A stretch of DNA of 64,000 bases from a virus. Below the pieces are notes generated by a model that had not been told where the DNA came from, did no database searches, and saw nothing but the letters and a program-made list of their open reading frames with translations. The translations under genes were made by a program, and so were the position numbers. The stretch lies in IMG/VR virus record IMGVR_UViG_3300027792_000010; one strand, written 5' to 3'. The number at the start of each line of letters is the position of its first letter. The first letter of the stretch is position 1. Below are positions 3,775-55,827 of the stretch, in pieces.

Positions 3775-4870
3775 AGGCTATAGGTTCCATGGAACGAGTG
3801 AATAGTTGTAATCCTTGTAGAGTATCTATGTGATAGGACTCGACTGTATTTTGAGAAGAAGCCCACTCTTTAGGATGCGGGCAGCCGCAGTGCCCAGCTA
3901 CTCTGACATATTTATTACCTTCGGGGTCATTATACATATTGATAGCTATATCTAAGGGTACGGGTCCTTCTACCATCCAGTATCTCCAGGCTCTCCTGAA
4001 CTTGAATTTCCCAAGGGTTCCGGCAAATTTGGTAGGGACTTCTCTATTTGGTTCTTGTAGTATTTTAGTTATGTTTGCCATTCTCAGTTCGGCTTCTACA
4101 TAGAGGTCAGCTTCCTCATTGCCAGCCAAATTGGGAAGATCGGTATAGGATAGTTCAGGATTCTTCATATGTTCAACGAGACGAGTGCTAATGACTTGTC
4201 TCATACATTCGGGATGGAAGTATTTCCACTCATTGATGTAGACTTCATCACCTTCTTCTATGATATGGTTTATAGTGATACCTTCATTTTTTCCTACCCA
4301 TCCTCGCTCATTTATTTTGAGGTATGTATATTCAGGATGAGGGGTAAGGTCTATATATTTATCATTACGGACGAGCATCCTATCATCGAATCTTACCATC
4401 CAGGCTTTATCTTTGATAGTTTTTGTCCAACTTATTACATCTTTGAAAGTTTTCCCGATAAAGTCTTTTAGTGGGTAGACTATCGAATCATTCTCTACTC
4501 GGATATTATAACAGGTATTTAGTGTCCATGGTTTCCCACAGTGGCTGCAGACGTTATTAGCTGGTGGTAGGTTGTTTTTGAAGTCCCATAAGATACGTTG
4601 TTTATCTTTTGGTAGGCATCTTATTATCGTCTCGAACTCACCCTTAGTAATTACCTTAGGTAAGGTAGGTACGATGTTTAGGGGTCTGCATTCTGGGGAT
4701 GCTTTTAGGCAATTTCCGCAGGTGTCGAGGTAGTAGCTTCCTAGCACCACGAATTCGTCCAAGCGCTTCTTATCTTCATACCCAGCTTTATGACGATCTT
4801 TGATCATCTCCATGAAGGATTCATAGCATAACAAGGAATTAGAGATGGACTGACAGGTGTTCATAGGCAC
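3767..4870 (-). CDS. hypothetical protein (367 aa)
   Basis: long ORF overlapping the next gene; CxxC motifs. Confidence 0.7.
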   Translation of the reverse strand: MPMNTCQSISNSLLCYESFMEMIKDRHKAGYEDKKRLDEFVVLGSYYLDTCGNCLKASPECRPLNIVPTLPKVITKGEFETIIRCLPKDKQRILWDFKNNLPPANNVCSHCGKPWTLNTCYNIRVENDSIVYPLKDFIGKTFKDVISWTKTIKDKAWMVRFDDRMLVRNDKYIDLTPHPEYTYLKINERGWVGKNEGITINHIIEEGDEVYINEWKYFHPECMRQVISTRLVEHMKNPELSYTDLPNLAGNEEADLYVEAELRMANITKILQEPNREVPTKFAGTLGKFKFRRAWRYWMVEGPVPLDIAINMYNDPEGNKYVRVAGHCGCPHPKEWASSQNTVESYHIDTLQGLQLFTRSMEPIACA

Positions 4871-28913: not shown

Positions 28914-28995
28914 CGGAGGAAACAGGACTCGAACCTGCAAGGCCGATGAAAGCCTACACGCTTTCCAGGCGTACCACTTATCCAGTTAGTGTACC
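28914..28995 (-). tRNA. tRNA-Ser(GGA), interrupted: 5' acceptor strand GGAGG(G) displaced to 30314-30319 by the TnpB element
   Basis: D arm, TACGC-CTGGAAA-GCGTG anticodon arm, long V arm, T arm, TTCCTCC-G; 5' strand absent locally. Confidence 0.85.
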
Positions 28996-30313
28996 GTTCA
29001 TAAAAACTTGGACAAATCCAAATTAGTATGTCTTTGTTCTTGAGGGACGGTAGACTCCTCAATCGATCCAAAATGAAGTATATTTTTAGATGCATTATAA
29101 TCTGCATCACATGTATACCCACAAGATATACACTCATATACTTCTCCTTGTCTTGAATCTTTGTGGGTCTCCCCACAAGATGAACATCTCTGAGAAGTAT
29201 AAGCAGGAGATATTTTGATCAGATGAACACGGTTCTCTTCACAAATATCTTCGATCCTTCTATACACTTGTCTCAGGTTCCAATGAGCCTGTTCAGCTCT
29301 TTGAAATTTGTTCATACGTCTTTCTTGACGTGTTTTATGATTCATATTTATTAAATCCTCCATGACTACAGTTTTGTATTCATGGAGGTTAAGTTTCTTT
29401 ATCTCACAATCTATATAATCTTTCAAACTATTTAACGCTTGATTATAGTTCTTACTATGCTTCTTTTTTCTTAATAAATTCTGGATTTTAGAAGTTATCT
29501 CGGTACCGAGGAAACGACCATCAGAACATGAAAATAATTTATTTCTTCCAAGGTCTATTCCTAATGTTTTAAACTTAGCTATTGGGGTATCTTGAATATC
29601 TTTTTGAAAGAATAAGTTTGCATAGTACCTGTTTTGTTCTTTATTAAAATATAGTGTTAGGGATTTAGATAAGGAATAGCCACTATTACATAACTTATTA
29701 TACTGTCTATGCTTATGAGATGGAAGTATAAGTGAAAACCTGTTACCAAAAATGGAACCAAGTCTGATCCACAGGTCAAAACTTGAAGAAGTTTTTGACT
29801 CTTGTACATGGCATAGGTCAGAGTTTAGTTCTATAGTAGAACCATCAAATATAGGTTTATTTATTCTCGGTCTAAAAGTTTTACCTTTAGACCAAACAGA
29901 CCACGTTTTATTTACTATGGGATATTTTTTCTTCTTAGATTTAGCTTTAGCGTATATTTTTTTATATTTTGAATATATTCTTTTTTTATTATTAGTGTGA
30001 GCTGATTTAAGTATTTTCATAGCTTGATTACCTGCACACTTCATAGCTTTACCAAGTAACCAAGAGTATATTTGTTTATAGTGATTTGAGTTTATTTTAG
30101 AAGGTAGTTTTTCTTTTAACCAGTACAGGTCTATAAAGACATTAACGACTCTTTGATATTCTTCAAAGAATGATTTAAGTTTATCGATTTTAAAATTAGT
30201 AGCCTCATTCAAGGATACTTGAGATCGTTTAATAAGTTTCATAGTATTTATAGCCAAGTAAGAAATGTATAATATTATCTAAATATGTCTAAATTTTCTT
30301 TAAATAGTTTCAA
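28996..30313 (-). mobile_element. non-autonomous IS607-like element carrying only tnpB
   Basis: flanked by GG at both junctions (GGAGGG|TTGAAAC...AAGTTTTTATGAAC|GG); tnpB fills the element; no TnpA. Confidence 0.75.
28998..30242 (-). CDS. tnpB: RNA-guided endonuclease TnpB (Cas12f-like)
   Basis: RuvC GIDLG, VMEDL, PAYTSQRCSSCG, CISCG..DADYNASKNI; ATG 30242 (ORF track starts 30257). Confidence 0.9.
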   Translation of the reverse strand: MKLIKRSQVSLNEATNFKIDKLKSFFEEYQRVVNVFIDLYWLKEKLPSKINSNHYKQIYSWLLGKAMKCAGNQAMKILKSAHTNNKKRIYSKYKKIYAKAKSKKKKYPIVNKTWSVWSKGKTFRPRINKPIFDGSTIELNSDLCHVQESKTSSSFDLWIRLGSIFGNRFSLILPSHKHRQYNKLCNSGYSLSKSLTLYFNKEQNRYYANLFFQKDIQDTPIAKFKTLGIDLGRNKLFSCSDGRFLGTEITSKIQNLLRKKKHSKNYNQALNSLKDYIDCEIKKLNLHEYKTVVMEDLINMNHKTRQERRMNKFQRAEQAHWNLRQVYRRIEDICEENRVHLIKISPAYTSQRCSSCGETHKDSRQGEVYECISCGYTCDADYNASKNILHFGSIEESTVPQEQRHTNLDLSKFL

Positions 30314-30328
30314 CCCTCCAAAGTCCCC

Positions 30329-30622
30329 TTACCCAATTACCGCAAGAATCTGAGTATCGAGTGTAATATAATATTTAATACCTCCCATTTCGATCTCTAC
30401 TGCTCGTTTACTGTCAAAAATAACTTTATCCCCTACAGCGACCTGCATCGGGAGAAGAACCCCCTCAGAACTTATCAAGCCGGGACCAACCGCTACAGCT
30501 GTGCCTTTCTGCGTCACCTCTTCTTTCTCTCTTTGGGCTAAGAGGATACCTCCGTCGCTTACTGATGCAGCAGCATCAGGAAGAATAAAAACTTTGTTTG
30601 AAATTGGATTTAACTTTTCCAT
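30329..30622 (-). CDS. groES: co-chaperonin GroES
   Basis: LNP..NKV, GGILL, GT.VAVGPG, V.VGDKV.F, ILAVI. Confidence 0.92.
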   Translation of the reverse strand: MEKLNPISNKVFILPDAAASVSDGGILLAQREKEEVTQKGTAVAVGPGLISSEGVLLPMQVAVGDKVIFDSKRAVEIEMGGIKYYITLDTQILAVIG

Positions 30623-30694
30623 TTGAATCTCCTCATTTGAATGTAGATGTGAATATTATAATATACTTTTTATCTTAAGATTTTTAAAGCATCA

Positions 30695-31198
30695 TTAAAT
30701 AATCATTTTAAGCAGTTGATTAAACCACCCAGGATTAGATACCCCATTGTTATACTCTATAGCTTGGTATATCTTGTGACTTTTTATAGGACTAGGTAAT
30801 CTATTAGCTAATTTTGAGGCTAAAAAGTATATTCTATCTTTTTTATATGTTTTGGTCTTATACAAATCACATATTTCTTTCCACATATATTCTGCGACCC
30901 CATATAATTTCAGTAGTCGAGCTATTCTTACTCCCCATAGCTGAGCCTGTAGCTCATCTTTAGATTTACTTTTTGATATGCCAGTATAAATATGACCTAA
31001 CTCGTGAAGTACTACAGAATAGATTATTAGGGAGTTAAATTTGGTAATATCTTTAATGAAGCAGACTAGCCATTTGTAGGGTTCAGCATATGCAATAGAG
31101 TTCACTTTTCTTTTCTTCATCGTACCCTCAGTTACAAACTCTACTTTTATCTCTGGATCTATATACTTTATAAAATCTGTAATTTGCTGTTTAGTCAC
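30695..31198 (-). CDS. HExxH protein (putative Zn peptidase)
   Basis: VVLHELGH. Confidence 0.5.
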   Translation of the reverse strand: MTKQQITDFIKYIDPEIKVEFVTEGTMKKRKVNSIAYAEPYKWLVCFIKDITKFNSLIIYSVVLHELGHIYTGISKSKSKDELQAQLWGVRIARLLKLYGVAEYMWKEICDLYKTKTYKKDRIYFLASKLANRLPSPIKSHKIYQAIEYNNGVSNPGWFNQLLKMII

Positions 31199-31295
31199 CT
31201 TATCCCCACTTGATAAGACCTTAGCAATTTACGCGCATTAAGGGCCGCACCAATAATCGCCAGAGAAGAGGGTATCCAACCGAGGGCGGTTATCT

Positions 31296-31544
31296 TTAGC
31301 ATATTCTACCGTTCTTACTTTCCCACTCTTCCCGGTAAACATTTGCAAACTTCATAATCCAATCGATACAAGCTTCATCACCAAGGTCTCTTTTAGCTTT
31401 CTCACTCTCAAGCCACTTATACTTCAAGATTTCTTGTATCTGATCATGAATGAATCTAGTATACAAGTCTTTTTTGGTTTTATGATTCGGAGACTCAGAC
31501 TCTTCTATAACTAACCCTGTCTCTCCAAGGACACTAATAGTCAT
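31296..31544 (-). CDS. DUF4032-like small protein
   Basis: EILKYKWLESEKA.RDLG..AC.DW. Confidence 0.55.
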   Translation of the reverse strand: MTISVLGETGLVIEESESPNHKTKKDLYTRFIHDQIQEILKYKWLESEKAKRDLGDEACIDWIMKFANVYREEWESKNGRIC

Positions 31545-31564
31545 ATCTTCTCCCTGGTGATTAT

Positions 31565-31650
31565 TGGTGCGTCCGAGAGGATTTGAACCTCCACGAGATT
31601 ACTCTCACAAGATCCTGGGTCTTGCGTGTCTTCCATTCCACCACGAACGC
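31565..31650 (-). tRNA. tRNA-Leu(CAG), C at position 33
   Basis: CAAGA-CCCAGGA-TCTTG, long V arm, encoded CCA. Confidence 0.9.
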
Positions 31651-31713
31651 AAAAATAGTTCAAAGATAATATACTATTTATAATAATAATATTAAAAATA
31701 AAAAGACAATAAA

Positions 31714-31980
31714 TCAATACTGCAGAGTTTCAATTAGGTGGGCAATCGCTTCAGCGGCCTCGCACTCATCCGGGCCTGAGGCTCTGACTAAGAGGGTATC
31801 TCCCTCTTCAAAACAGCAACTTAACAGAGGAAGGACCTCTTTTGCATTAACATTATCTTTGATGCTATCCTTATGTATGAGGATAATAGATTTATACTCT
31901 CTAGCTTTGATAGCAATGCTCATCGAAGGTCGGGCATGTATTCCATTTGTACTTAAGACTATAGCCCTTATCTCCACCAC
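31714..31980 (-). CDS. ptsH: HPr family phosphocarrier protein
   Basis: GIHARP (His15), NAK, GD.L.V.ASGPDE.EA; Ser46 position is Glu. Confidence 0.88.
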   Translation of the reverse strand: MVEIRAIVLSTNGIHARPSMSIAIKAREYKSIILIHKDSIKDNVNAKEVLPLLSCCFEEGDTLLVRASGPDECEAAEAIAHLIETLQY

Positions 31981-32006
31981 AGCTTAATCTCCCTGAAAGA
32001 ATTTAA

Positions 32007-32079
32007 TGGAGCTAGGCGGATTCGAACCGCCGATCTTTTGAATGCCATTCAAACGCGATCCCAGCTTCGCTATAGCCCC
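32007..32079 (-). tRNA. tRNA-Ala(GGC)
   Basis: GGGGCTA acceptor with G3.U70; TTTGA-ATGGCAT-TCAAA. Confidence 0.93.
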
Positions 32080-32256
32080 TTAATCCTTTAGATACGTACT
32101 TATGAATACATTATTATTTTATTTCCATAGCAAAAGATGTGGCAAGTAACTCATAGGGCTCAGTTTCTATAAGTTCATAATATGTGTTCCGTGGTATATA
32201 CTGTATCGTTTTTCTATTAAATACTCCTACCTTTTTTGACTTCTTATATTTATCTT

Positions 32257-32448
32257 TTATCTTTTTAGATATACTTCATCTCTTATATCATAAAACGAAT
32301 GATATGAAAAAAATCGAGTCCCTTTTATTCTTATAGCCCCTTCTTCTTTTTCTACTGAAACATCCCTCAAGGTTACTTCAACTCTATACTCACTAACAAT
32401 AACAGCAGTTGATTCTTTAGTATTATACTTGATATGTAACATAGCCAT
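32257..32448 (-). CDS. hypothetical protein
   Basis: start at MAMLH with AAGGAG RBS; the longer ORF-track start overlaps tRNA-Ala. Confidence 0.5.
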   Translation of the reverse strand: MAMLHIKYNTKESTAVIVSEYRVEVTLRDVSVEKEEGAIRIKGTRFFSYHSFYDIRDEVYLKR

Positions 32449-32462
32449 CTCCTTATTTATAG

Positions 32463-32535
32463 TGGAGCCTGAGGGGATCGAACCCTCGACCTTTGGCTTG
32501 CAAAGCCAACGCTCTCCCAATTGAGCTAAGGCCCC
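32463..32535 (-). tRNA. tRNA-Ala(UGC)
   Basis: TTGGC-TTTGCAA-GCCAA, G3.U70. Confidence 0.95.
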
Positions 32536-32543
32536 ATAATCCA

Positions 32544-33083
32544 CTATCCTCTTTTAATATTTTTGTACGCCTTTTTTAGCTTATCTTTAAGTACCATATA
32601 CTCCCCGCATGATAACTTTTCAATAAAAAGTAAACCTTCAAGATGCTCGTACTCATGCTGTATGACCCTTGCCAAGAGTCCTGCGGCTTTCTCTATTACT
32701 ACTTCCTCACCGCTTTCATTAAGAGCTTTGATAGATACTGTGTCGGGTCTCTTGATCCTCAGTTGTAATCCTGGAAAACTTAGGCATCCCTCAAGGTCTT
32801 CAACCAGAGTATCTGACTGATAAGTTATCTCTGGGTTAACAAATACCTGAGGACTATCGTGAGCCTCTGAAATATCTATAATGAAGAATCTGGCAGGTAT
32901 GCCTATTTGAGGGGCTGCGATACCTATTCCTTTTTTGTCATACATTACTTTCAAAATCTCTGGGAGTACCTCTTTTAGGTCTTCTATATCAGTACTATTG
33001 AGAAGTCCTGCAGTTTTTCGTAAAACAGAAGAACCGTATATCTTAATAGAATAGGGCGGATCTGAAGGAAGCTCTGTTTCCAT
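32544..33083 (-). CDS. def: peptide deformylase
   Basis: GIGIAAPQIG, EGCLS, QHEYEHLEG (E in place of the usual D). Confidence 0.93.
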   Translation of the reverse strand: METELPSDPPYSIKIYGSSVLRKTAGLLNSTDIEDLKEVLPEILKVMYDKKGIGIAAPQIGIPARFFIIDISEAHDSPQVFVNPEITYQSDTLVEDLEGCLSFPGLQLRIKRPDTVSIKALNESGEEVVIEKAAGLLARVIQHEYEHLEGLLFIEKLSCGEYMVLKDKLKKAYKNIKRG

Positions 33084-33122
33084 ATTATCTCCTATGTATG
33101 TGTATATGTTTGTGTATATATA

Positions 33123-33203
33123 AGCCGGATGAGGGACTCGAACCCCCGATGCCTTGCGGCGCTTGATTACAAGTCAAGTGCAGTACCACTCTGCAAATCC
33201 GGC
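33123..33203 (-). tRNA. tRNA-Thr(UGU) with long variable arm
   Basis: CTTGA-CTTGTAA-TCAAG; V region CGCCGCAAGGCAT. Confidence 0.85.
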
Positions 33204-33217
33204 GTATTATTTAATAT

Positions 33218-33457
33218 TTAATATTCTCTGCGTTTGGACTTTCTACGGATACCACTCTGCTCTTCTCTTTCCCGAGTCTCATTCATCTGTACTTTACGAA
33301 TTGCAGCTTTTGTTTTAGCTCTCTTAATAACGCTAGGTTTATCATAGCGCTGTTTGTTTCTTACTTCTGATAGGACACCGGAATCATCCATTGTCCTTGA
33401 GAACCTTTTGAGAGCTTTCTCAATGTTTTCATTGTCTCTAATCTTTACGCCATTCAT
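33218..33457 (-). CDS. rpsU: ribosomal protein bS21
   Basis: V.IR.NE.IEKALKRF....SGVL.EVR...Y.KPS; ATG 33457 with AGGAG. Confidence 0.9.
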   Translation of the reverse strand: MNGVKIRDNENIEKALKRFSRTMDDSGVLSEVRNKQRYDKPSVIKRAKTKAAIRKVQMNETREREEQSGIRRKSKRREY

Positions 33458-33585
33458 CTTAAACTTACTCCTGAGGGTTTTCAACCCTCTGTTGTTTTTA
33501 TAAACATATAATTGGACTCGAACAGACGGCTTGATCCTTATTACCAGAATTTTAGCCCTTAACCATAATGGAGGTCTGATCTAAC

Positions 33586-33750
33586 CTATTTTACTACTAA
33601 CCACTTAAATAATCCATAAAAAATAGTAATTACAACTGCTCCCGCCAAGGGAGACTCACTCTTCAATCTCCAGGCTATTAGGGTCGAAAGAATCCAAATG
33701 CATATTAATAGAATATGCGCCCCGGTAATTTGTGAGACGATGTGATCCAT
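33586..33750 (-). CDS. 54-aa two-TM membrane protein (below ORF-track cut-off)
   Basis: AGGAG RBS, MDHIVSQITGAHILLICIWILSTLIAW... Confidence 0.5.
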   Translation of the reverse strand: MDHIVSQITGAHILLICIWILSTLIAWRLKSESPLAGAVVITIFYGLFKWLVVK

Positions 33751-33849
33751 AAAGCTCCTGTTTTTAATGTACTACTTGTTCATTTATATTCATAATAAAA
33801 CCTGCATGGTTGGTTCCCATAAGCATCATCAATAGCACCTATGATAAGT

Positions 33850-34047
33850 TTATGCATTTAATACCATATTTACCTTTATATGCTTTAGAGGAGTCGATAG
33901 AGCGACATACGTATGTAACTCTACTTCTCCTGTAAAAGAATTGGCATCTATATCATAGGAAAATCCTTGATTTTTAGTCGTAAAGAACCTTCCTAGTATA
34001 TGTGCTTGTTCTATTTCTTTTTCGAATTTTTTGAGAGCTTCACCCAT
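33850..34047 (-). CDS. hypothetical protein
   Basis: short ORF with AGGA RBS. Confidence 0.5.
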   Translation of the reverse strand: MGEALKKFEKEIEQAHILGRFFTTKNQGFSYDIDANSFTGEVELHTYVALSTPLKHIKVNMVLNA

Positions 34048-34288
34048 ATATCATTTCCTATTCTGATATTCAAAAGTGCATAGTGAAGACATATATAATT
34101 ATGCGTTCAAGCTTATTATGTTTCTAAGTCTATATCTCTAAAGTGTATAGATAGCTGATAAGTGCGCAGTATAAACACTCGTACAGCACTGACGTTTTTT
34201 ATGCTTGGCTTGTTGGTCGCAAGTCTCTTAGGACCCACTTGGTACTCCTATTACGGCGGCACCTACAAGTTGCCAGGGAATCGATTCT

Positions 34289-34432
34289 CCGATCTATAAA
34301 ACTTACTCAAAACCAACAGGAGTTAGTTTTGATGTTTATTTCTTGCTTCATAGAAACAGCTTTTAAGTTTTAGGTCCTTAAAAGTCTTACACTTTCTCCA
34401 CAAGCTTAAGTTCCGGTCGATCTGACCGTACC
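34289..34432 (-). ncRNA. orphan IS607/TnpB omegaRNA-like right end
   Basis: TACGGTCAGATCGACCG..GCTTGTGGAG..GTAAGAC..GCTGTTTCTATGAAGCAAGAA..hairpin..AAGTTTTATAGATCGG; shares GCTGTTTCTATGAAGCA with the end at 63931-64000. Confidence 0.65.
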
Positions 34433-34530
34433 GATAACTCATATCCCCGAAGGGAAAGGAGGTATCGTTATTCGAAAGGATAAACTCTTACGGTTAAACC
34501 TATTTGATTCTAACCAGCCCTTAAAGTCTA

Positions 34531-34542
34531 TGTCAAAGAACT
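34531..34542 (-). promoter_or_regulatory. boxA-like motif GTTCTTTGACA (copies 34531-34542, 34848-34859, 42680-42691)
   Basis: three exact copies, all on the transcribed strand of tRNA array 1; resembles rrn boxA. Confidence 0.55.
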
Positions 34543-34931
34543 AATACCTACTTGTTTTTCGTAGGCATACTTAATATACTTCTTGAATAATTAAAAATTA
34601 AATATTTTTATTAATAGCCTTGAGTAAATTTAATTATATTTTGTATAAATTTATGTGACTGTTAGATTCCCTACATATCTACCTTATAACCGTTGAGGCT
34701 ATAGACTGATACTCCTCTTATGCTCTATTAGCACCACTTCTCATCCGTTTGCATTGAAGCATAGATACATTTTCATAGATGAGATTTATTGCTTCATTTC
34801 CGGGTAGTGTATACCCATGCATCACTATGCACTTTTCAATACCAGAATGTCAAAGAACAGATACTGACTACAGATTCGAACTACCCTAATTTATTAGCCA
34901 ACTTAAGGGTATTCGTATCTTTAAAACTTAA

Positions 34932-35040
34932 CGGAGGGTGAGGGATTTGAACCCCCAAACCCGTAAGGGTGACGGTTTTCGCCGGAACATCTCATGGGTG
35001 TGCCGACAAGACCGTTGACTTACCATTAGCCTAACCCTCC
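34932..35040 (-). tRNA. tRNA-Ser(UGA) with 27-nt hairpin insertion in the anticodon (34980-35006)
   Basis: ACGGT-CTTG[27 nt]AAA-ACCGT, long V arm, G73. Confidence 0.88.
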
Positions 35041-35138
35041 GATTATTGAGTCGGAACCGACCACCGAGGTAAACCTCGCCACCAGGGAGTTGGTCCATTT
35101 CTGGAATGATAGCTTTTTTAACGCCCTGCCGACTCCTT

Positions 35139-36250: not shown

Positions 36251-36706
36251 TTACCCCTTGGAAAGCTTATCTCTGACTATTTGGTTTATTGTTTTTCCGT
36301 CTGCTCTACCTTTAACAATAGATAAAATCTTACTCATCACCATACCCATTTGTTTAATAGATACGGGCTCAGATATTGATATAACCGTATCAATAATTTG
36401 AGATAGTTCTTCTTCGGTAAGAGGAGTTGGTAGGTAGGACTTATATACCTTTACCTCGTATTCATTAATATCAACCAAATCTTGTCTTGATGCTTTCTTA
36501 AACATCTCTGAAGCATCTTCTCGTTGTTTAATACACCTGGAGATAACAGTAATAGCCATATCGTCTGAAACTTCTTTTCGATTTTTGATAACTTCATTCT
36601 GGATCTCTGAATCGAGAAGACGAAGACAAGAAACTTTAGATGATTCACGGGCTTTCATTGCAGCCTTAATGTCATCCCTAATTTTGATGTAAATATCTGA
36701 AGCCAT
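36251..36706 (-). CDS. GatB/YqeY domain protein
   Basis: D.KAAMKARE, LR.L.SEI, IKQRE.A..F..A.R.DL, MG.VM, G.ADGK. Confidence 0.9.
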   Translation of the reverse strand: MASDIYIKIRDDIKAAMKARESSKVSCLRLLDSEIQNEVIKNRKEVSDDMAITVISRCIKQREDASEMFKKASRQDLVDINEYEVKVYKSYLPTPLTEEELSQIIDTVISISEPVSIKQMGMVMSKILSIVKGRADGKTINQIVRDKLSKG

Positions 36707-36867
36707 AAAAGTCCCTTTCTGTAATTAATTATAATATACTTTTTACCAATTTAATTTTAAAGAAAATTATTATGAATTACTTTTAATAATAAATATTTGA
36801 TAATCTACTAATTAAAGCGGTAAAATATGGGTAAATCTATAACTGCAACTATAGGAGTACAGGCATC

Positions 36868-38360: not shown

Positions 38361-38434
38361 TTCATCCTCTGGTGTATTAGTTCTTTCATGTCCCTTAATA
38401 ACTTAATATACTTTTTGGAAGATAGAATTGAAAG

Positions 38435-40520: not shown

Positions 40521-40595
40521 TGGGGTGAGTAGTCGGTATCGACCCGGCTCTAATGGTTTCACAGACCATCGTGCTACCTTTACACTATACTCACC
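40521..40595 (-). tRNA. tRNA-His(GUG)
   Basis: ATGGT-CTGTGAA-ACCAT, G-1:C73, CCA. Confidence 0.92.
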
Positions 40596-40806
40596 GTAAT
40601 CTGTTTTTATTACCCCATGTATCTGTTTGAGTATGGCAGTTAGGGCATAACATTATTATGTTTTCCAATTTATTATTTTTTTATTTCCATCTTTATGATG
40701 CAGCTGAATAGCTATTTCTATACCATTCCACGAAACTATATTACAATTTTCACACTTATTTGATTTGTAACCATATTCTATAAGTTTATTCTTAAATTTA
40801 TAATTA

Positions 40807-41037
40807 TTACTTATTTGAATACCTATCCGAATACCAATCTAATCTCTTAATAACTTCATCTCTATACTCTGGTCCATAAATATCTCCGACCGAGGTGCTG
40901 ACTCGTTCTCTGGTAGTTTTATATTTCCACTTATGTTTTACTGAAGCATCGTAGAAATGGGTCCAACTTACCATCATGTTATTTTTCTTCAATATCTCCA
41001 GGATATACTCAAGAGGTATACCTAAAATTGAAGACAT
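40807..41037 (-). CDS. hypothetical protein
   Basis: short ORF. Confidence 0.5.
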   Translation of the reverse strand: MSSILGIPLEYILEILKKNNMMVSWTHFYDASVKHKWKYKTTRERVSTSVGDIYGPEYRDEVIKRLDWYSDRYSNK

Positions 41038-41187
41038 AGGCTCAAAGACTCCTGATACGATCAGCTTACCATCATCAGTTTCACCTACAACTGTTAAGGT
41101 AACAGTACTCCGTTTGCTTTTAGCATGGGGGTGTCTCCTTTTCTATTTATATTACAAGTTTTTCATATGGATTACAATTATTTTAAA

Positions 41188-41271
41188 CAAGTGCGGAGGG
41201 ACTCGAACCCCCACAGACTCAAAGAGTCACGGTTTTGGAGACCGCTGAACTACCTATTATTCTACGCACTT
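41188..41271 (-). tRNA. tRNA-Trp(CCA) with long variable arm
   Basis: GCGGT-CTCCAAA-ACCGT; V region GACTCTTTGAGTCT; A1-U72, G73. Confidence 0.85.
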
Positions 41272-41463
41272 ATGTTTATTTTCATGTATGTCATGTACAC
41301 TATAGACAATTGTGGTAATTTTTTCTGCTTGATTCAATATTGATATTAATCTTTGTTTTATCTTTTCGTCAGTGGCAGATAGAAGTAATAGTTCAGCATT
41401 TCCGATGATACAGCATAGAGCGTTACAGATATCATGATGTTCTTTCATGATTAACCCCCTCAT
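41257..41463 (-). CDS. stand-alone HisKA-like phosphoacceptor fragment
   Basis: HDICNALCCIIGNAELL resembles H-box HD.NN.L..I.G.AEL. Confidence 0.55.
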   Translation of the reverse strand: MRGLIMKEHHDICNALCCIIGNAELLLLSATDEKIKQRLISILNQAEKITTIVYSVHDIHENKHKCVE

Positions 41464-41552
41464 TAGATGTTAGTAGAGTCACATAGGGGTATTATATGGG
41501 TCTGCGTATAATAGTATTAAATAAATTAATGTATTATTATAAAGTAAAGAAA

Positions 41553-41636
41553 TGGTGTCCGAGGAGGGACTCCAACCCCCATGCCATAAGCGGCAGGGCT
41601 TAAACCTGCTGTGTCTAGCAATTCCACCACTCGGAC
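41553..41636 (-). tRNA. tRNA-Leu(UAA)
   Basis: GCAGG-TTTAAGC-CCTGC, long V arm, CCA; C19/G56 swap. Confidence 0.88.
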
Positions 41637-41643
41637 AAATATA

Positions 41644-41755
41644 TGGTGGTAGAGAGAGGATTTGAACCTCTGTACCCCGAAGGGAGCGGATTTGCTAAGT
41701 TCACCGCTCGGATGAACTTAACAGTCCGCCGCTTTTTCCACTCAGCCACTCTACC
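41644..41755 (-). tRNA. tRNA-Tyr(GUA) with 27-nt hairpin insertion in the anticodon (41694-41720)
   Basis: GCGGA-CTGT[27 nt]AAA-TCCGC, long V arm, G1-C72, A73, CCA. Confidence 0.88.
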
Positions 41756-41770
41756 GTTAATTTAAAAAAT

Positions 41771-41856
41771 TGGTGCGTTCGAGAGGACTTGAACCTCCAC
41801 GGGTATATGCCCAGTAGCTTTTGAGGCTACTGTGTCTACCGTTCCACCACGAACGC
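41771..41856 (-). tRNA. tRNA-Leu(CAA)
   Basis: GTAGC-CTCAAAA-GCTAC, CCA. Confidence 0.93.
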
Positions 41857-41868
41857 AAAAAAGGTTAG

Positions 41869-41951
41869 TGCGGATGATAGGATTCGAACCTACACAGGAT
41901 GACTCCCAATAGAACCTCATTCTATCGTGGCTACCATTACACCACATCCGC
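41869..41951 (-). tRNA. tRNA-Leu(GAG)
   Basis: ATAGA-ATGAGGT-TCTAT, long V arm, A73. Confidence 0.88.
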
Positions 41952-41970
41952 ATATAAAATATTTTCTAAT

Positions 41971-42195
41971 TTAGAATCCTCTATTAGTTCCTTCTCCAGG
42001 AGGTACAAACATCATCCCCGGCATCCATCCAACATTCTTAGGGGTTTTATTTGTGCCTTTAGGAGCTAAGTCACTATAGGAGGAATGAATAGCTTTAGTG
42101 TTTTGAGTAGGAACTATATCGCTACTCTCAATATTATCTCTTGTTGTTATATTCTGTTTTTGAACCAAATTCATTAATTCCTGTACTTTAGACAT
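41971..42195 (-). CDS. hypothetical protein
   Basis: start MSKVQ with AAGGAG; the longer start overlaps tRNA-Leu. Confidence 0.55.
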   Translation of the reverse strand: MSKVQELMNLVQKQNITTRDNIESSDIVPTQNTKAIHSSYSDLAPKGTNKTPKNVGWMPGMMFVPPGEGTNRGF

Positions 42196-42210
42196 CTTAT
42201 ACTCCTTAAT

Positions 42211-42295
42211 TGCTAGTAGAGGGGCTCGAACCCACACGGGGAAAATCCCCACAAACTTCTAAGGCTTGCGCGGCTACCAGTTACGCCATACTAGC
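42211..42295 (-). tRNA. tRNA-Leu(UAG)
   Basis: CAAGC-CTTAGAA-GTTTG, long V arm, A73. Confidence 0.9.
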
Positions 42296-42308
42296 ATAAA
42301 AGATATTA

Positions 42309-42481
42309 ATCGAAAATTAAGAGGGTCTTATACGAGTTATCAGAGCGTTAATGAAAGCTTATAGGCTTTTGCGGTTACCATTTCGCCATCCCTGCGTAAA
42401 GATGCAGGGACCAGGATTCGAACCTGGAAATTTTAATGTATGCTCGTAAAGTTAGAGTATAAAACCCACTTAATACTCGAT
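42309..42481 (-). ncRNA. circularly permuted tRNA-like RNA (or Y-RNA-like)
   Basis: order T arm, TCCCTGC-A, 7-nt linker, GCAGGGA, D arm, anticodon-like hairpin; flanks pair (42457-42467 with 42323-42333). Confidence 0.75.
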
Positions 42482-42487
42482 TATTTT

Positions 42488-42563
42488 TGGAGGCGGTGAT
42501 GGGCCTCGAACCCACATACTCGGTTTTGCAGACCGATGCATGAACCTATTCTGCTACACCGCC
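42488..42563 (-). tRNA. tRNA-Cys(GCA)
   Basis: TCGGT-CTGCAAA-ACCGA, U73, CCA. Confidence 0.95.
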
Positions 42564-42621: not shown

Positions 42622-42779
42622 ATTTATTTAGAAACAGTTATTTCCGTTTCACAAAGTGCTTATTACATCGAACCATGACTGTCAAAGAACTTAAAAACAA
42701 CCTACCAGATCATATAGCACCTTGGCGTAACCTCGCCTACCACAACTCCGATCTGGCCCAGGGGCACTGCCGGGCTATG

Positions 42780-42965
42780 TTATTTCATAGTTTCTGGTTG
42801 TATTTTAATTACTCGTACCCTATCAAGTCTTTTACGTATCTTATCTTCAGGGAGCATAGAAACTAATCTTCGTGCCTCCGCTTTACTCAGACAAATACGT
42901 TTCTCTATAATTCCATCTATCAATTCTTTAGCTTTCTTATCTTCTATATCCATATTATCCTCCAA
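42780..42965 (-). CDS. small S4-like RNA-binding-domain protein
   Basis: ICLSKAEARRLV resembles the S4 motif SxSEARRLI. Confidence 0.5.
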   Translation of the reverse strand: MEDNMDIEDKKAKELIDGIIEKRICLSKAEARRLVSMLPEDKIRKRLDRVRVIKIQPETMK

Positions 42966-42970
42966 GTACT

Positions 42971-43009
42971 AAAACAAAAAACCCCGCTTCAGTTTCCTGG
43001 GCGGGGTTT
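42971..43009 (-). terminator. intrinsic terminator of attenuator 1
   Basis: AAACCCCGC...GCGGGGTTTTTT; 5' arm can instead pair with TGGGTGGG (43047-43054). Confidence 0.85.
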
Positions 43010-43037
43010 CGTATTTTTTCTGGTTTACCAGTTTACG

Positions 43038-43151
43038 TCAAGTTTTCCCACCCACCACTATATTATTACAGAGTAAATATGACAATAACCATGCGGCTGC
43101 TGTATGCAGCTTGGTCATTGTCGAACATAGTGTAGAATGGACTTTTTTCAT
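43038..43151 (-). CDS. 37-aa leader peptide of tRNA array 1 (MKKVHSTLCSTMTKLHTAAAWLLSYLLCNNIVVGGKT)
   Basis: between promoter and terminator; 21 of codons 5-28 are cognate to downstream tRNAs. Confidence 0.85.
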   Translation of the reverse strand: MKKVHSTLCSTMTKLHTAAAWLLSYLLCNNIVVGGKT

Positions 43152-43179
43152 TTTAAATACCTATTACCTTTCAATTTAT

Positions 43180-43208
43180 AATATACCATTTTGTAGAACC
43201 AAGATCAA
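43180..43208 (-). promoter_or_regulatory. sigma70-type promoter TTGATC-N17-TATATT for leader 1
   Basis: 25/29 identical to the leader-2 promoter; extended -10 TG. Confidence 0.8.
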
Positions 43209-43393: not shown

Positions 43394-43641
43394 AATGGCT
43401 GTAATTACTCCTCAACTTTTAGATACTTCCTCAGCTTATTTGCTGCCAGGATGTATTGCTCTCTTAACTCATGAAATATTTTATCATTGATTTCTTCGAA
43501 TCTTGAGTAGTGTATAAAGGTATAGTCAAAACCTTCCTGGCCTACTCTCTGTGCTACTTTTTTTCTATCCTCTTCTTTCATAACAGCTCCTTTTAATTTT
43601 AAAATAGGGCTTTAATAATATACTTTTTTAAATGATAGAGA

Positions 43642-45063
43642 TCAAATTTTGTTTTTTATAGTTTCTACTAAATACTTTATCCTTTTCTCCTGAATGTCTC
43701 TAACTTTTGGGTCTGACTCCACTACCGTATTATGTATATAGCAAAACCAAAATAACTCTTCGTGGAACTTCTCCAAGTCTTTATACCACTTTTCTACTTT
43801 TGGATCAACATACTCATGATGTCTTTCCCATTTCAAATCAACATATGAAACCCAGTCATTTAACGATGAAGGCTTTGGCATCCCTCTTTTTACGCATTCA
43901 GTGTATACATCGGTATTGGGAGTAGGTATCAATTTTTTTATATTTACCTGGGCCATCCCATTCTCTAATAACAAATTAATCATTGTAATATACGTGCATT
44001 TTATGTCTTGTAAGGTTTCTTCTGGAAATCCCGCTATGAAATTGTAATTTACTATGATATCAAAATCTCTTAGTCTACGATTGATTGTAAGAACCATATC
44101 TGTTTTGTGCTTCTTACCAATTATTTTTAGCATCCTATCAGAACCAGTTTCAGCACTTATCCCTATAGTTTTTATTCCGCATTTTTGTAAAAGTTCTATA
44201 TGGATAGGTAACATATTATATAGTATCGTAACGGGAATAGATACATATACTTCAAACTTAAGATTAGATGCTATTATTGCTCTAATGTAATTCATAGCAT
44301 TTGTATTAACAAAAAAGTTATCATCAGCTATAACTAATGCTCTAAATCCTATATCCCATATATTCCTTAGATGCCTAATCATATTGTCTATACTCATGCA
44401 TCTGAATTTTGTTCTAAAGTTGTTCTGTACGCAATAGTAGCAGGAGAGGGGACATCCTCTCGTTATTTCTATGGTGGCTACTTTGTCTGAGCTAAATTTG
44501 TAAAAAGGATTTGTAGTAGGATTCTGAAATTTATCTAATGATAAGTCTTCGTAAGACAAAAGTGGTAATTCATCTAAATCAAAGTTCTCTGGATCTGCCT
44601 CTGTCTTTTGTACTTTTCCTTTTACTTTGTAGTAGATACCTGGAATTTTACTCAAATCTTCTTTATGCTGTATACTTAGTACTAACTTTGTTATCGTTCT
44701 TTCAAACTCACCAACACAAACTATATCTATATATTCATTCTCAATAGTTTGTTCTGGGGTGAGTGTCGGATGTATTCCTCCCCAGATTATAGTAATTCCT
44801 GGGTGCTTTTCTCTTATTTGTTTTGAAAGAGTGAGGGCCTCAGATATTTGAGGCCCTGTCATAACGCTAAACCCGCAACATACCGTATCATCTTTTATAT
44901 GGTCCTCAATATCATCTACAAGATCGATATTTGCGAAACCACTTGAAGTACAGTAAATCTCTGAAGATATGTTGCTCTTCTTAAGTATCGAGCTTAGGTG
45001 TAGTAATCCTAATGGAGGAGAACTTAGAGGATTATCTTTACAGGGGTAAATAAATAGTACCAT
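43642..45063 (-). CDS. B12-binding radical SAM protein
   Basis: PPLGLL.L, WGGIHPT, VGEFE, RGCPLSCYYC, ETGS, FIAGFPEET. Confidence 0.9.
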   Translation of the reverse strand: MVLFIYPCKDNPLSSPPLGLLHLSSILKKSNISSEIYCTSSGFANIDLVDDIEDHIKDDTVCCGFSVMTGPQISEALTLSKQIREKHPGITIIWGGIHPTLTPEQTIENEYIDIVCVGEFERTITKLVLSIQHKEDLSKIPGIYYKVKGKVQKTEADPENFDLDELPLLSYEDLSLDKFQNPTTNPFYKFSSDKVATIEITRGCPLSCYYCVQNNFRTKFRCMSIDNMIRHLRNIWDIGFRALVIADDNFFVNTNAMNYIRAIIASNLKFEVYVSIPVTILYNMLPIHIELLQKCGIKTIGISAETGSDRMLKIIGKKHKTDMVLTINRRLRDFDIIVNYNFIAGFPEETLQDIKCTYITMINLLLENGMAQVNIKKLIPTPNTDVYTECVKRGMPKPSSLNDWVSYVDLKWERHHEYVDPKVEKWYKDLEKFHEELFWFCYIHNTVVESDPKVRDIQEKRIKYLVETIKNKI

Positions 45064-54389: not shown

Positions 54390-54516
54390 GCGTCATGCGC
54401 CCCTTTTTCTTTGGTGTGCCTTGCTCTTTAAAGTAGGTTTCATAGTTTGTAGTGTGACCGATAGTGTAAATCATAGCAATAATATACTAATTAGGAAGGA
54501 AGTTTTAAATATAAAA

Positions 54517-54605
54517 CGGAAGGTACAGGATTTGAACCTGTGAAGGTATTTAAACTCCCTGACGGTTTAGCAAACCGTTGCAATAGGCCGCTCTGCCAAC
54601 CTTCC
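54517..54605 (-). tRNA. tRNA-Ser(GCU)
   Basis: ACGGT-TTGCTAA-ACCGT, long V arm, G73. Confidence 0.94.
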
Positions 54606-54645
54606 ATTATTTTTTCTTTATGTTTCTTTTGTCCATAATCGAAAA

Positions 54646-54722
54646 TGGTGGGAGTATCACGAATTGAACGTGAGACCTTTCGGTTATCAGCCGAACGCTC
54701 TAACCATCTGAGCTATACTCCC
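54646..54722 (-). tRNA. tRNA-Ile(GAU)
   Basis: TTCGG-CTGATAA-CCGAA, CCA. Confidence 0.95.
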
Positions 54723-54737
54723 TATAAGCTATTAGGT

Positions 54738-54813
54738 TGGTAGCGGAATGTTGGAGTTGAACCAACTTAACCAAGTTTATGAGACTCGGTGAGATGCCGA
54801 CCTCCCACCCGCG
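54738..54813 (-). tRNA. tRNA-Met(CAU), initiator-like
   Basis: CGCGGG start with C1 mismatch, loop CTCATAA, CCA; lacks the three G-C anticodon pairs. Confidence 0.8.
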
Positions 54814-54825
54814 ATGTATTTAAAA

Positions 54826-54896
54826 TAGTGAGAATCAGAATCGAACTGATCTAAACAGGATATGAGCCTGTTGAGGGGCCACTCCTCAATCTCACT
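54826..54896 (-). tRNA. tRNA-Met(CAU) (elongator Met or Ile2)
   Basis: ACAGG-CTCATAT-CCTGT. Confidence 0.85.
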
Positions 54897-54905
54897 GTAT
54901 GTTTA

Positions 54906-54981
54906 TGGCGGGGACGACGGGTTACGATCCCGCTCTCTTTGGCTTGACAAGCCAATGCTTTCCCGATTAAGCTACGTCCCC
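54906..54981 (-). tRNA. tRNA-Asp(GUC)
   Basis: TTGGC-TTGTCAA-GCCAA, G73, CCA; T loop ATCGTAA. Confidence 0.92.
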
Positions 54982-54991
54982 TAATATTTAA

Positions 54992-55474
54992 TTAATCCTC
55001 ACCTTCATAATCTATGATAGGTACTATTCTTACGTTCCTATCCTTATTGCCCCTAAGTATACGCTCAGCCTCTTTGTAACTATCGAATACTGTACTATCT
55101 ACAGTTCCTATTAAGGGGTCCAAAAATACATACCCTACTTTAAGACCTTGTTTCTTTAGATTCTCCAAAGCTGTATCTAAGTATTCTATCTTCTGCTTCT
55201 GTAATACAAATCCTATATTCAAATCAAAGACACGAACTAATTCATCATACTCTTTGTCTGGTAGGAATCCCTTCAAAAGGCATAAAGAACCTACGCAGCT
55301 TTCTAAGTATTTTCCGATTTTCAGAGAATGAAGTACATAGTAATAGCCATCCTCGTCTTCATCGAATCCTACTAATCTCACAACTTCGTGGAAGTCTATA
55401 AGTAGTTCTCCTTTATGTTTCTCTATAAACTCTAAAATCTCTGGCTTAGGATCTTTAAACTCTGATATGTCCAC
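54992..55474 (-). CDS. hypothetical protein inside tRNA array 2
   Basis: AGGAG RBS, GTG start. Confidence 0.65.
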   Translation of the reverse strand: MDISEFKDPKPEILEFIEKHKGELLIDFHEVVRLVGFDEDEDGYYYVLHSLKIGKYLESCVGSLCLLKGFLPDKEYDELVRVFDLNIGFVLQKQKIEYLDTALENLKKQGLKVGYVFLDPLIGTVDSTVFDSYKEAERILRGNKDRNVRIVPIIDYEGED

Positions 55475-55495
55475 TATATACTCCTAAGAAAAATA

Positions 55496-55571
55496 TGGTG
55501 CCGCCTTTCGGAGTTGAACCGAATTCTTTAGCTCTTCAGGCTAACGCAATCACCGGACTTGCTCAAGCGGC
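55496..55571 (-). tRNA. tRNA-Phe(GAA)
   Basis: TTAGC-CTGAAGA-GCTAA, CCA. Confidence 0.94.
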
Positions 55572-55621
55572 ATATAATTTGCCTTTGTAATTCTCTTACA
55601 TCAGATAGGCTATATTAAAAT

Positions 55622-55657
55622 AAAAAAGCCCCCGAACTTCTCAGTCCGGGGGCTTTT
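55622..55657 (-). terminator. intrinsic terminator of attenuator 2
   Basis: GCCCCCGGAC-TGAGAA-GTTCGGGGGC-TTTTTT; 5' arm can instead pair with GGTCCGGG (55674-55681). Confidence 0.88.
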
Positions 55658-55680
55658 ATAAGCTACTTGTTTACCCGGAC

Positions 55681-55758
55681 CTATACAATACTATCAAACA
55701 TACTATCAAAACTGATAGTATCGCTGTTGATGATAATGCTGAAAGTAGAGGTACACAT
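55681..55758 (-). CDS. 25-aa leader peptide of tRNA array 2 (MCTSTFSIIINSDTISFDSMFDSIV)
   Basis: 17 of codons 6-24 are cognate to the downstream Phe/Asp/Met/Ile/Ser(GCU) tRNAs. Confidence 0.85.
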   Translation of the reverse strand: MCTSTFSIIINSDTISFDSMFDSIV

Positions 55759-55798
55759 TGAAAATAGTTTTCCTTGAAAAAGTTTTTGTTCTGTCTTT

Positions 55799-55827
55799 AA
55801 TATACCACTTTGTAATACAAAGATCAA
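55799..55827 (-). promoter_or_regulatory. sigma70-type promoter TTGATC-N17-TATATT for leader 2
   Basis: near-copy of the leader-1 promoter. Confidence 0.8.

Follow-up and report, generated by a model that had tools for sequence, protein, structure and literature searches.

How does a phage that carries its own tRNA genes decide when to make them? Clusters of phage tRNA genes have been read as compensation for the loss of host tRNAs or for a mismatch in codon usage, and cleavage of tRNA is a common antiphage defence. As far as we are aware, the timing and dosage of phage-encoded tRNA production are poorly understood. The question is raised sharply by a 64,000-nucleotide stretch of viral DNA (the window; IMG/VR record IMGVR_UViG_3300027792_000010), in which a short module (module 1, 43208-42970, minus strand) lies upstream of 14 tRNA genes of a phage with a contig of about 202 kb. 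As in the tRNA clusters of T4, T5, vibriophages and mycobacteriophages, these tRNA genes lie among small ORFs and mobile elements in a large genome. A sequence-only reading of the window had proposed that module 1 is a leader-peptide attenuator whose leader lists the codons of the tRNAs encoded after it. The core of that proposal appears to be backed by a second, paralogous module, by the placement of an antiterminator strand at the stop codon and by analogues in two other phages, all of them lines of evidence that do not depend on the codon match from which the proposal set out and that mostly come from outside its coordinates. As such, module 1 is probably a ribosome-dependent transcription attenuator of the trp/ilv type ahead of tRNA genes, and one of at least two in this phage.

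Architecture of the modules

The promoter, the 37-codon ORF and the GC-rich hairpin with a U tract from which the proposal had started are all present (Table 1). The 30-nt pattern that defines the promoter occurs only twice in the window, once in each module, against an expectation of zero. Leader ORF 1 starts about 22 nt past the predicted transcription start site and has a weak Shine-Dalgarno sequence (AGGU, 7 nt upstream of the start codon). It carries no gene call in the public collection, and its peptide, which has a Lys-Lys N-terminus and a moderately hydrophobic core, found no homologue among 1.84 billion representative proteins (phmmer; one repetitive, irrelevant match). The stem of terminator 1 contains an internal loop and was missed by a simple terminator scan, so that a hairpin scan of our own was used. 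Hairpins with a U tract at or below -17 kcal/mol occur at only three sites on the minus strand of the 64 kb, and modules 1 and 2 hold two of them. The 57-aa ORF that follows terminator 1 belongs to no PHROG family and is a singleton in the protein collection, as are the small proteins that flank module 1.

Module 2 repeats this layout ahead of a different set of tRNA genes. The Shine-Dalgarno spacing of leader 2 is 12-14 nt, and tRNA-Phe begins about 50 nt past terminator 2. Within the window, no further module of short ORF and terminator precedes any other tRNA gene.

Table 1 Features of the leader modules, of the tRNA genes and of recurrent motifs (positions refer to the window, except those on L001, the 264-kb relative, and on L088, phage Marchewka)
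Feature	Position	Strand	Remarks
Promoter-like site, module 1	43179..43208	-	-35 TTGATC, extended -10 TGgTATATT; sigma-70-like, from consensus scan
Leader ORF 1	43038..43151	-	ATG start, 37 sense codons, TGA stop
Codon-matched block, codons 5-28	43068..43139	-	21 of 24 codons decoded by the 14 downstream tRNA species
Antiterminator 5' strand, UGGGUGGG	43047..43054	-	codons 33-35, 10-17 nt upstream of stop
Small spacer hairpin between ORF 1 and terminator	43020..43031	-	in every predicted fold
Antiterminator 3' strand, CCCGCCCA	42998..43005	-	within 5' arm of terminator 1
Intrinsic terminator 1 with U tract	42970..43008	-	stem 43008-42980, -17.1 kcal/mol, G+C-rich
57-aa ORF	42780..42953	-	first gene past terminator 1; GGAGG ribosome-binding site
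Proximal tRNAs	40521..42563	-	Cys, Leu(UAG), Leu(GAG), Leu(CAA), Tyr, Leu(UAA), Trp, His
tRNA-Tyr(GUA)	41644-41755	-	27-nt insert in anticodon loop
Distal tRNAs	28922..35041	-	Ser(UGA), Thr(UGU), Ala(UGC), Ala(GGC), Leu(CAG), split Ser(GGA)
tRNA-Ser(UGA)	34931-35041	-	27-nt insert in anticodon loop
tRNA-Ser(GGA)	28993-28922	-	without 5' acceptor strand; abuts TnpB gene
Promoter-like site, module 2	55798..55827	-	paralogue of the module 1 promoter
Leader ORF 2	55681..55758	-	25 sense codons, TAG stop
Antiterminator 5' strand, module 2	55674..55681	-	starts at last base of stop codon
Intrinsic terminator 2 with U tract	55616..55655	-	stem 55655-55626, -24.5 kcal/mol
tRNA cluster 2	54516..55571	-	Phe, (160-aa ORF), Asp, Met, Met, Ile(GAU), Ser(GCU)
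AAAAAGTATATT, examples	43617-43628, 38405-38416, 36733-36744, 30660-30671	-	recurrent motif
GTTCTTTGACA, three exact copies	42680-42690, 34848-34858, 34531-34541	-	inside the tRNA island
Leader, 264-kb relative	L001 4801-4935		44 codons, head of tRNA island
Terminator, 264-kb relative	L001 4962-4991		-19 kcal/mol, strongest of the locus
Marchewka leader 1	L088 11206-11340		rich in Leu, Ser, His, Ala, Pro; terminator next
Marchewka leader 2	L088 17582-17677		contains the run NNVQQIQVV

Codon content and predicted folding of the leaders

The listing of codons 5-28 of leader 1 in the sequence-only reading, with 21 of 24 codons decodable and all 14 downstream tRNA species represented, was exact on re-reading under a decoding rule of Watson-Crick pairing plus G:U and U:G wobble. 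How surprising such a match is depends on the comparison. Among sets of 36 random codons drawn with genome usage, coverage of all 14 species has P = 4.5e-5 and 21 decodable codons have P = 2e-4. In a six-frame scan of 26,362 stop-free 37-codon windows, leader 1 is the sole locus to reach 14 species; 72 windows over many loci reach 13, so that about one locus at 14 is expected by chance in a stretch of this size. When the nearest eight and the distant six tRNAs are scored as separate sets, 30 and 39 loci, respectively, match equally well in the six frames. When the peptide is kept unchanged and only its synonymous codons are redrawn, 14-species coverage has P = 0.037 and a count of at least 21 has P = 0.15. 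Most species have just one to three codons in leader 1, scattered and not in tandem. The signal of module 1 is mostly one of amino-acid composition. Set 1 is also permissive, as shown by the module 2 region read in the wrong frame, where 16 of 24 codons fall into tRNA set 1.

The codon match of leader 1 is by itself suggestive, no more, and its use as a stand-alone proof was dropped in view of the one such locus that the six-frame scan expects. A P value of about 1e-4 can be taken at face value for module 1 because the module is specified by its promoter and terminator and not by its codons; pre-specified in this way, 14-species coverage has P of about 1.5e-4 from the six-frame windows or 4.5e-5 from the codon-usage model.

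Module 2 provides an independent comparison. Of the 24 codons after the start of leader 2, 17 specify Phe, Asp, Met, Ile (AUY) or Ser (AGY), the identities of its own six tRNAs, and among 38,567 six-frame windows leader 2 is the top locus, with 18 matching codons (start ATG included) versus 15 for the next best. Cross-tabulated, leader 1 holds 21 codons of set 1 and 1 of set 2, and leader 2 holds 2 and 17 (Fisher p = 1.9e-8). The agreement extends to synonymous codons. Specifically, leader 1 spells serine with UCN codons and five of the six serine codons of leader 2 are AGY, a switch that matches the Ser(UGA) and Ser(GGA) tRNAs of set 1 and the Ser(GCU) tRNA of set 2. All five isoleucine codons of leader 2 are AUY, though AUA is the commonest isoleucine codon genome-wide, at more than half of the total. 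Synonymous resampling of leader 2 with the peptide fixed gives P = 0.0003. Outside the promoter the two leaders have no common sequence, and the leader 2 peptide is not hydrophobic. The lack of shared sequence together with a match at the synonymous level therefore points to selection on the decoding tRNAs and not on the peptide. The sequence-only reading had asked whether leaders of related phages track their tRNA content; within this phage, the paralogous leader of module 2 does follow its different tRNA set, down to synonymous codons. As far as sequence comparison goes, the codon match becomes convincing through this replication in module 2, not through module 1 alone.

A leader of this kind would act through a choice between two RNA folds. 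The pairing of UGGGUGGG with CCCGCCCA, said to overlap the 5' arm of the terminator, does so and comprises eight pairs, one of them G.U (duplex -16.9 kcal/mol); the corresponding duplex of module 2 with its terminator 5' arm has 8 bp and -15.9 kcal/mol. Complementarity between stop region and terminator arm lies in the top 1.8% of genomic 28-mers for module 1 and in the top 0.5% for module 2, and for three modules it falls within the top 0.5-2% of genomic windows. With the footprint assumed here, a ribosome positioned on the stop codon would cover the antiterminator strand of either module. The leader regions fold far better than shuffled sequences (z = -5.6 for module 1 and -5.8 for module 2), and the predicted folds of both consist of a long hairpin across the ORF followed by the terminator.

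The timing of this choice was modelled by folding the nascent RNA before the 3' arm of the terminator is made, with a ribosome footprint of about -15 to +14 nt around the A site masked codon by codon. Under this model, the terminator 5' arm of either module pairs upstream (8-11 pairs) unless the A site has come close to the last codons. Antiterminator pairing is predicted to be lost with the A site from codon 30-32 on in module 1 and from about codon 24 on in module 2, and the modelled permissive stall range of module 1 stops at codon 28, the end of the matched codons. At equilibrium the terminator always wins in both modules, that of module 2 being about 9 kcal/mol more stable than the antiterminator, and the switch would therefore have to be kinetic. 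The nascent model also lets the antiterminator form without a ribosome, unlike in trp. Viewed as an attenuator, module 1 has a short 5' ORF with a weak ribosome-binding site, cognate codons, a terminator, a predicted antiterminator and, in the model, a fold set by the ribosome.

Known attenuators and analogous modules in other phages

In the trp leader, the terminating ribosome masks region 2, and besides trpL, hisL, leuL and pheL, multivalent leaders are known, such as that of ilvGMEDA, which senses Ile, Leu and Val, and that of thr, which senses Thr and Ile. Module 1 resembles these enterobacterial leaders in its short ORF rich in monitored codons, in a terminator ahead of the genes that would be regulated, in an antiterminator that uses a strand of the terminator and, under the footprint model, in a stop codon placed for masking by the ribosome. 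It differs from them in listing up to 14 tRNA species with scattered codons instead of tandem runs, and in belonging to a phage that has several such elements, each suited to the cluster behind it. Unlike those of amino-acid operons, the products downstream of module 1 are tRNAs, which act directly on the sensed quantity. The Rfam models Trp_leader, Phe_leader, His_leader and Thr_leader score 20.9, 19.4, 15.9 and 13.9 bits, respectively, versus thresholds of 41-55 (601-nt search, E = 0.1-8). It is mostly the terminator that gives rise to these sub-threshold matches, and they are not counted as evidence for that reason; module 1 belongs to none of the described Rfam leader families tested.

The closest functional precedents concern other parts of the translation apparatus. 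Attenuation at the pheM leader controls pheST, which encodes phenylalanyl-tRNA synthetase. Module 1 shares with it leader-peptide attenuation of a component of the translation apparatus, whereas pheST control acts on a synthetase and senses a single amino acid without multiplexing, and module 1 precedes tRNA genes. T-boxes bind uncharged tRNA directly and need no ORF. They too translate tRNA status into a choice between terminator and antiterminator ahead of translation-related genes; in module 1, by contrast, the signal would be in-frame codon choice, and no T-box was matched at the gathering threshold in the window or at E up to 10 in the region. A search of the full-text literature found no published description of ribosome-mediated attenuation of tRNA genes, in agreement with the sequence-only reading, which knew of none, and no description of demand-sensing transcriptional control of phage tRNA clusters.

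Analogous modules are present in other phages. A 264-kb relative, whose radical-SAM neighbour gene product is 49% identical to that of the window, carries 45 tRNAs in 21 kb. All 13 species of the cluster that follows are represented in its leader (top 0.6% of windows), with Tyr, Trp, Phe, Gln, Asn, Gly, His, Pro, Ile, Glu and Ala among the covered identities, and a 9-bp complement to the terminator arm begins inside the leader stop codon. Further upstream in the same relative (L001 4429-4580, plus strand), a near-consensus promoter precedes an ORF of 13 codons, many of them for Phe, Gln, Pro, Gly, Glu or Ile. A weaker terminator (4538-4574) follows this ORF just upstream of tRNA-Met and of the 44-codon leader, so that the relative may have two attenuators in tandem.

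The radical-SAM gene, which encodes a B12-binding protein, lies inside the tRNA island both in the window (43642-45063, minus strand) and in relatives (L001 10001-11278; L004 1020-2348), and in L004 it adjoins a methyltransferase gene. Its product may be a tRNA- or RNA-modifying enzyme.

The cultured Brevundimonas phage vB_BpoS-Marchewka (ON529851.1; host B. pondensis LVF1) carries two leaders. Downstream of leader 1 lie tRNAs for Pro, Pro, Leu (three), His, Ala and Ser (three); all 10 species are represented in the leader, which ranks first among the loci scanned. Leader 2 is followed by a G+C-rich inverted repeat with a T run, as read from the sequence, and then by Val, Ile, Val, Gln and Asn tRNAs. 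Cross-tabulated against the two tRNA sets, the Marchewka leaders again give a diagonal, with 24 and 1 codons for leader 1 and 3 and 12 for leader 2 (p = 1e-6). One misfit is the eight Thr codons of leader 1, as no Thr tRNA is present nearby. Between the terminator of leader 2 and tRNA-Val, at about L088 17810-17895 (plus strand), lies a stretch that resembles a tRNA, with GUA in its anticodon loop and CCA at its end, and that is neither annotated nor called by ARAGORN; Marchewka leader 2 has one Tyr codon.

Closer comparisons were sought more widely. Searches of IMG/VR via the radical-SAM and topoisomerase neighbours, the leader DNA and the shared promoter pattern found nothing close. The promoter pattern was likewise not found on metagenome contigs, and a radical-SAM profile retrieved 80 metagenome loci at no more than 35% identity, none with a tRNA island. 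The closest homologue in the search for relatives had 63% identity and lay on a 2.3-kb contig, and the deposited phages include no close relative of the approximately 202-kb phage.

Proposed mechanism, alternatives and reach of control

The sequence itself gives the leader frame with its codon match, the terminator, the placement of an alternative pairing, the paralogue and the analogues in other phages. Translation of the leader, a response of read-through to tRNA availability, the distance that read-through covers and the cause of tRNA depletion are inferred. Specifically, transcription would start at the dedicated promoter and a ribosome would translate the 37-codon leader. If decoding is fast, the ribosome would reach the stop codon and cover UGGGUGGG, the terminator would form and the RNA would end at about 200 nt. 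A delay at any of codons 5-28 would instead leave UGGGUGGG free to pair with the 5' arm of the terminator, so that polymerase would continue through the 57-aa ORF to the eight nearest tRNA genes and perhaps beyond. In turn, the tRNAs produced would relieve the stall, which would amount to a per-cluster feedback on tRNA supply during infection; the sequence-only reading proposed that such a circuit would answer anticodon nucleases or starvation.

Other explanations have to be weighed against ribosome-dependent attenuation. Terminator 1 might simply end an upstream operon (the 58-aa and 62-aa genes from 43628) or free a structured sRNA of about 200 nt, with the ORF an untranslated product of chance and other promoters driving the tRNAs. 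Such an account would be at ease with the weak ribosome-binding site of leader 1, with an ORF that is not gene-called and has no homologues, with a module 1 codon match within window-wide chance and with the promoter motif at 43617-43628, which would read into terminator 1; the fold of z = -5.6, with its 5' hairpin, small hairpin and terminator, is sRNA-like as well. We nevertheless consider it unlikely, since it leaves unexplained the synonymous-level match of module 2 to its own tRNAs, the diagonal cross-table, the repeated antiterminator strand at the stop codon and the recurrence of the pattern in two other phages, and since a dedicated promoter right before the ORF would be pointless at a mere operon end. 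A true attenuator could also work without a signal from ribosome speed, if a phage or host protein or a T-box-like contact between RNA and tRNA picked the fold. In-frame codon selection and the position of the antiterminator relative to the stop codon are expected only where a ribosome reads the frame, and neither T-box nor other riboswitch models match at E up to 10. These points make a protein or RNA contact a rather improbable cause, even though the alternative pairing exists, the shared promoter spacer could hold an operator and the T-box core has a part similar to a GGGUGG motif of module 1. The T-box reading that this motif had prompted was rejected, as no covariance model matched.

The ORF might, finally, encode a small hydrophobic protein that is functional and has nothing to do with tRNA, the promoter and terminator serving this gene only. 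Micro-genes of this type are abundant in phage genomes and the hydrophobic core and Lys-Lys N-terminus of peptide 1 would suit one, yet the peptide has 0 homologues in 1.84 billion representatives, leader 2 is unrelated and not hydrophobic despite having the same promoter and layout, and the function of a peptide does not explain a signal in synonymous codons; we hold this to be very unlikely. A small membrane protein or lipoprotein was rejected on the same grounds.

If ribosome-dependent attenuation is the preferred reading of module 1, the question arises how far its control would extend. The array of 14 tRNAs described in the sequence-only reading holds up in number, with 14 genes downstream, and not in continuity, as they are spread over 14 kb. 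Between terminator 1 and tRNA-Cys lie the 57-aa ORF and about 220 nt, and the protein genes among the 14 tRNAs encode, among others, a topoisomerase, a YqeY-like protein, a pyrimidine-dimer glycosylase and a peptide deformylase; one protein gene inside the 14-kb stretch is on the plus strand. With the YqeY-like gene (36251-36706, minus strand) and the peptide deformylase gene (32544-33083, minus strand), translation-related functions are gathered in the tRNA island.

The motif AAAAAGTATATT occurs 15 times in the window versus 2.3 expected, mostly on the minus (gene) strand, in intergenic positions and ahead of genes, and it is probably the common promoter class of this phage, distinct from the two attenuator promoters. 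No copy lies between the terminators and their nearest tRNAs, from 43008 to 38416 and from 55626 to 53525, which fits a dependence of the nearest clusters on read-through. Promoter-like copies do occur upstream of the distal six tRNAs, at 38416, 36744, 34584 and 31679. Of the three copies of GTTCTTTGACA, one is placed between the 57-aa ORF and tRNA-Cys; no conserved -10 element accompanies the copies at the usual spacing. The data support control of the nearest eight tRNAs by module 1 as a plausible reading. The further claim of one sensor for all 14 tRNAs over 14 kb is not supported in the form in which it was put, given the distal promoter-like motifs, the plus-strand gene and one split tRNA.

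Several of the tRNA genes are unusual in themselves. Eleven of the 14 are plain genes according to ARAGORN and Rfam. The inserts of tRNA-Tyr and tRNA-Ser(UGA) form hairpins, are unrelated to each other in sequence and are too short for a group I intron; ARAGORN labels the two genes Asn and Asp with introns, and their long variable arms fit Tyr and Ser. tRNA-Trp(CCA) (41187-41272, minus strand; 86 nt), which ARAGORN draws with an 8-bp acceptor stem, and tRNA-Thr(UGU) (33123-33203, minus strand; 81 nt) both have a long variable arm that is unusual for their identity. Beside tRNA-Ser(GGA) lies a TnpB/Cas12f-like gene of 419 aa (28998-30257, minus strand), with a candidate 5' acceptor piece across it at about 30318-30310, and this tRNA gene looks split by an IS605-type element of about 1.3 kb (region 28922-30320, minus strand).

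A broader model, to which we give an even chance, is that such modules act as parallel tRNA 'thermostats', in which the leader of each cluster lists its own codons and slow decoding switches on the matching tRNAs until decoding recovers. The slowdown could stem from host anticodon nucleases, from a phage-driven loss of host tRNAs or from unmet codon demand of the phage. The idea is directly testable, as an analogous pair of modules is present in the cultured phage Marchewka, whose host is known. If true, it would be the first ribosome-mediated attenuation known for tRNA genes and would give phages a built-in sensor of tRNA attack, with the leaders serving as compact, portable sensors of specific tRNA availability. 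It would also put a textbook mechanism to a new purpose, in which the tRNA that is sensed is itself the output and decoding capacity is fed back on directly. The splitting of tRNA islands into clusters would then be explained, and the host tRNAs whose loss each phage anticipates could be predicted from its leaders.
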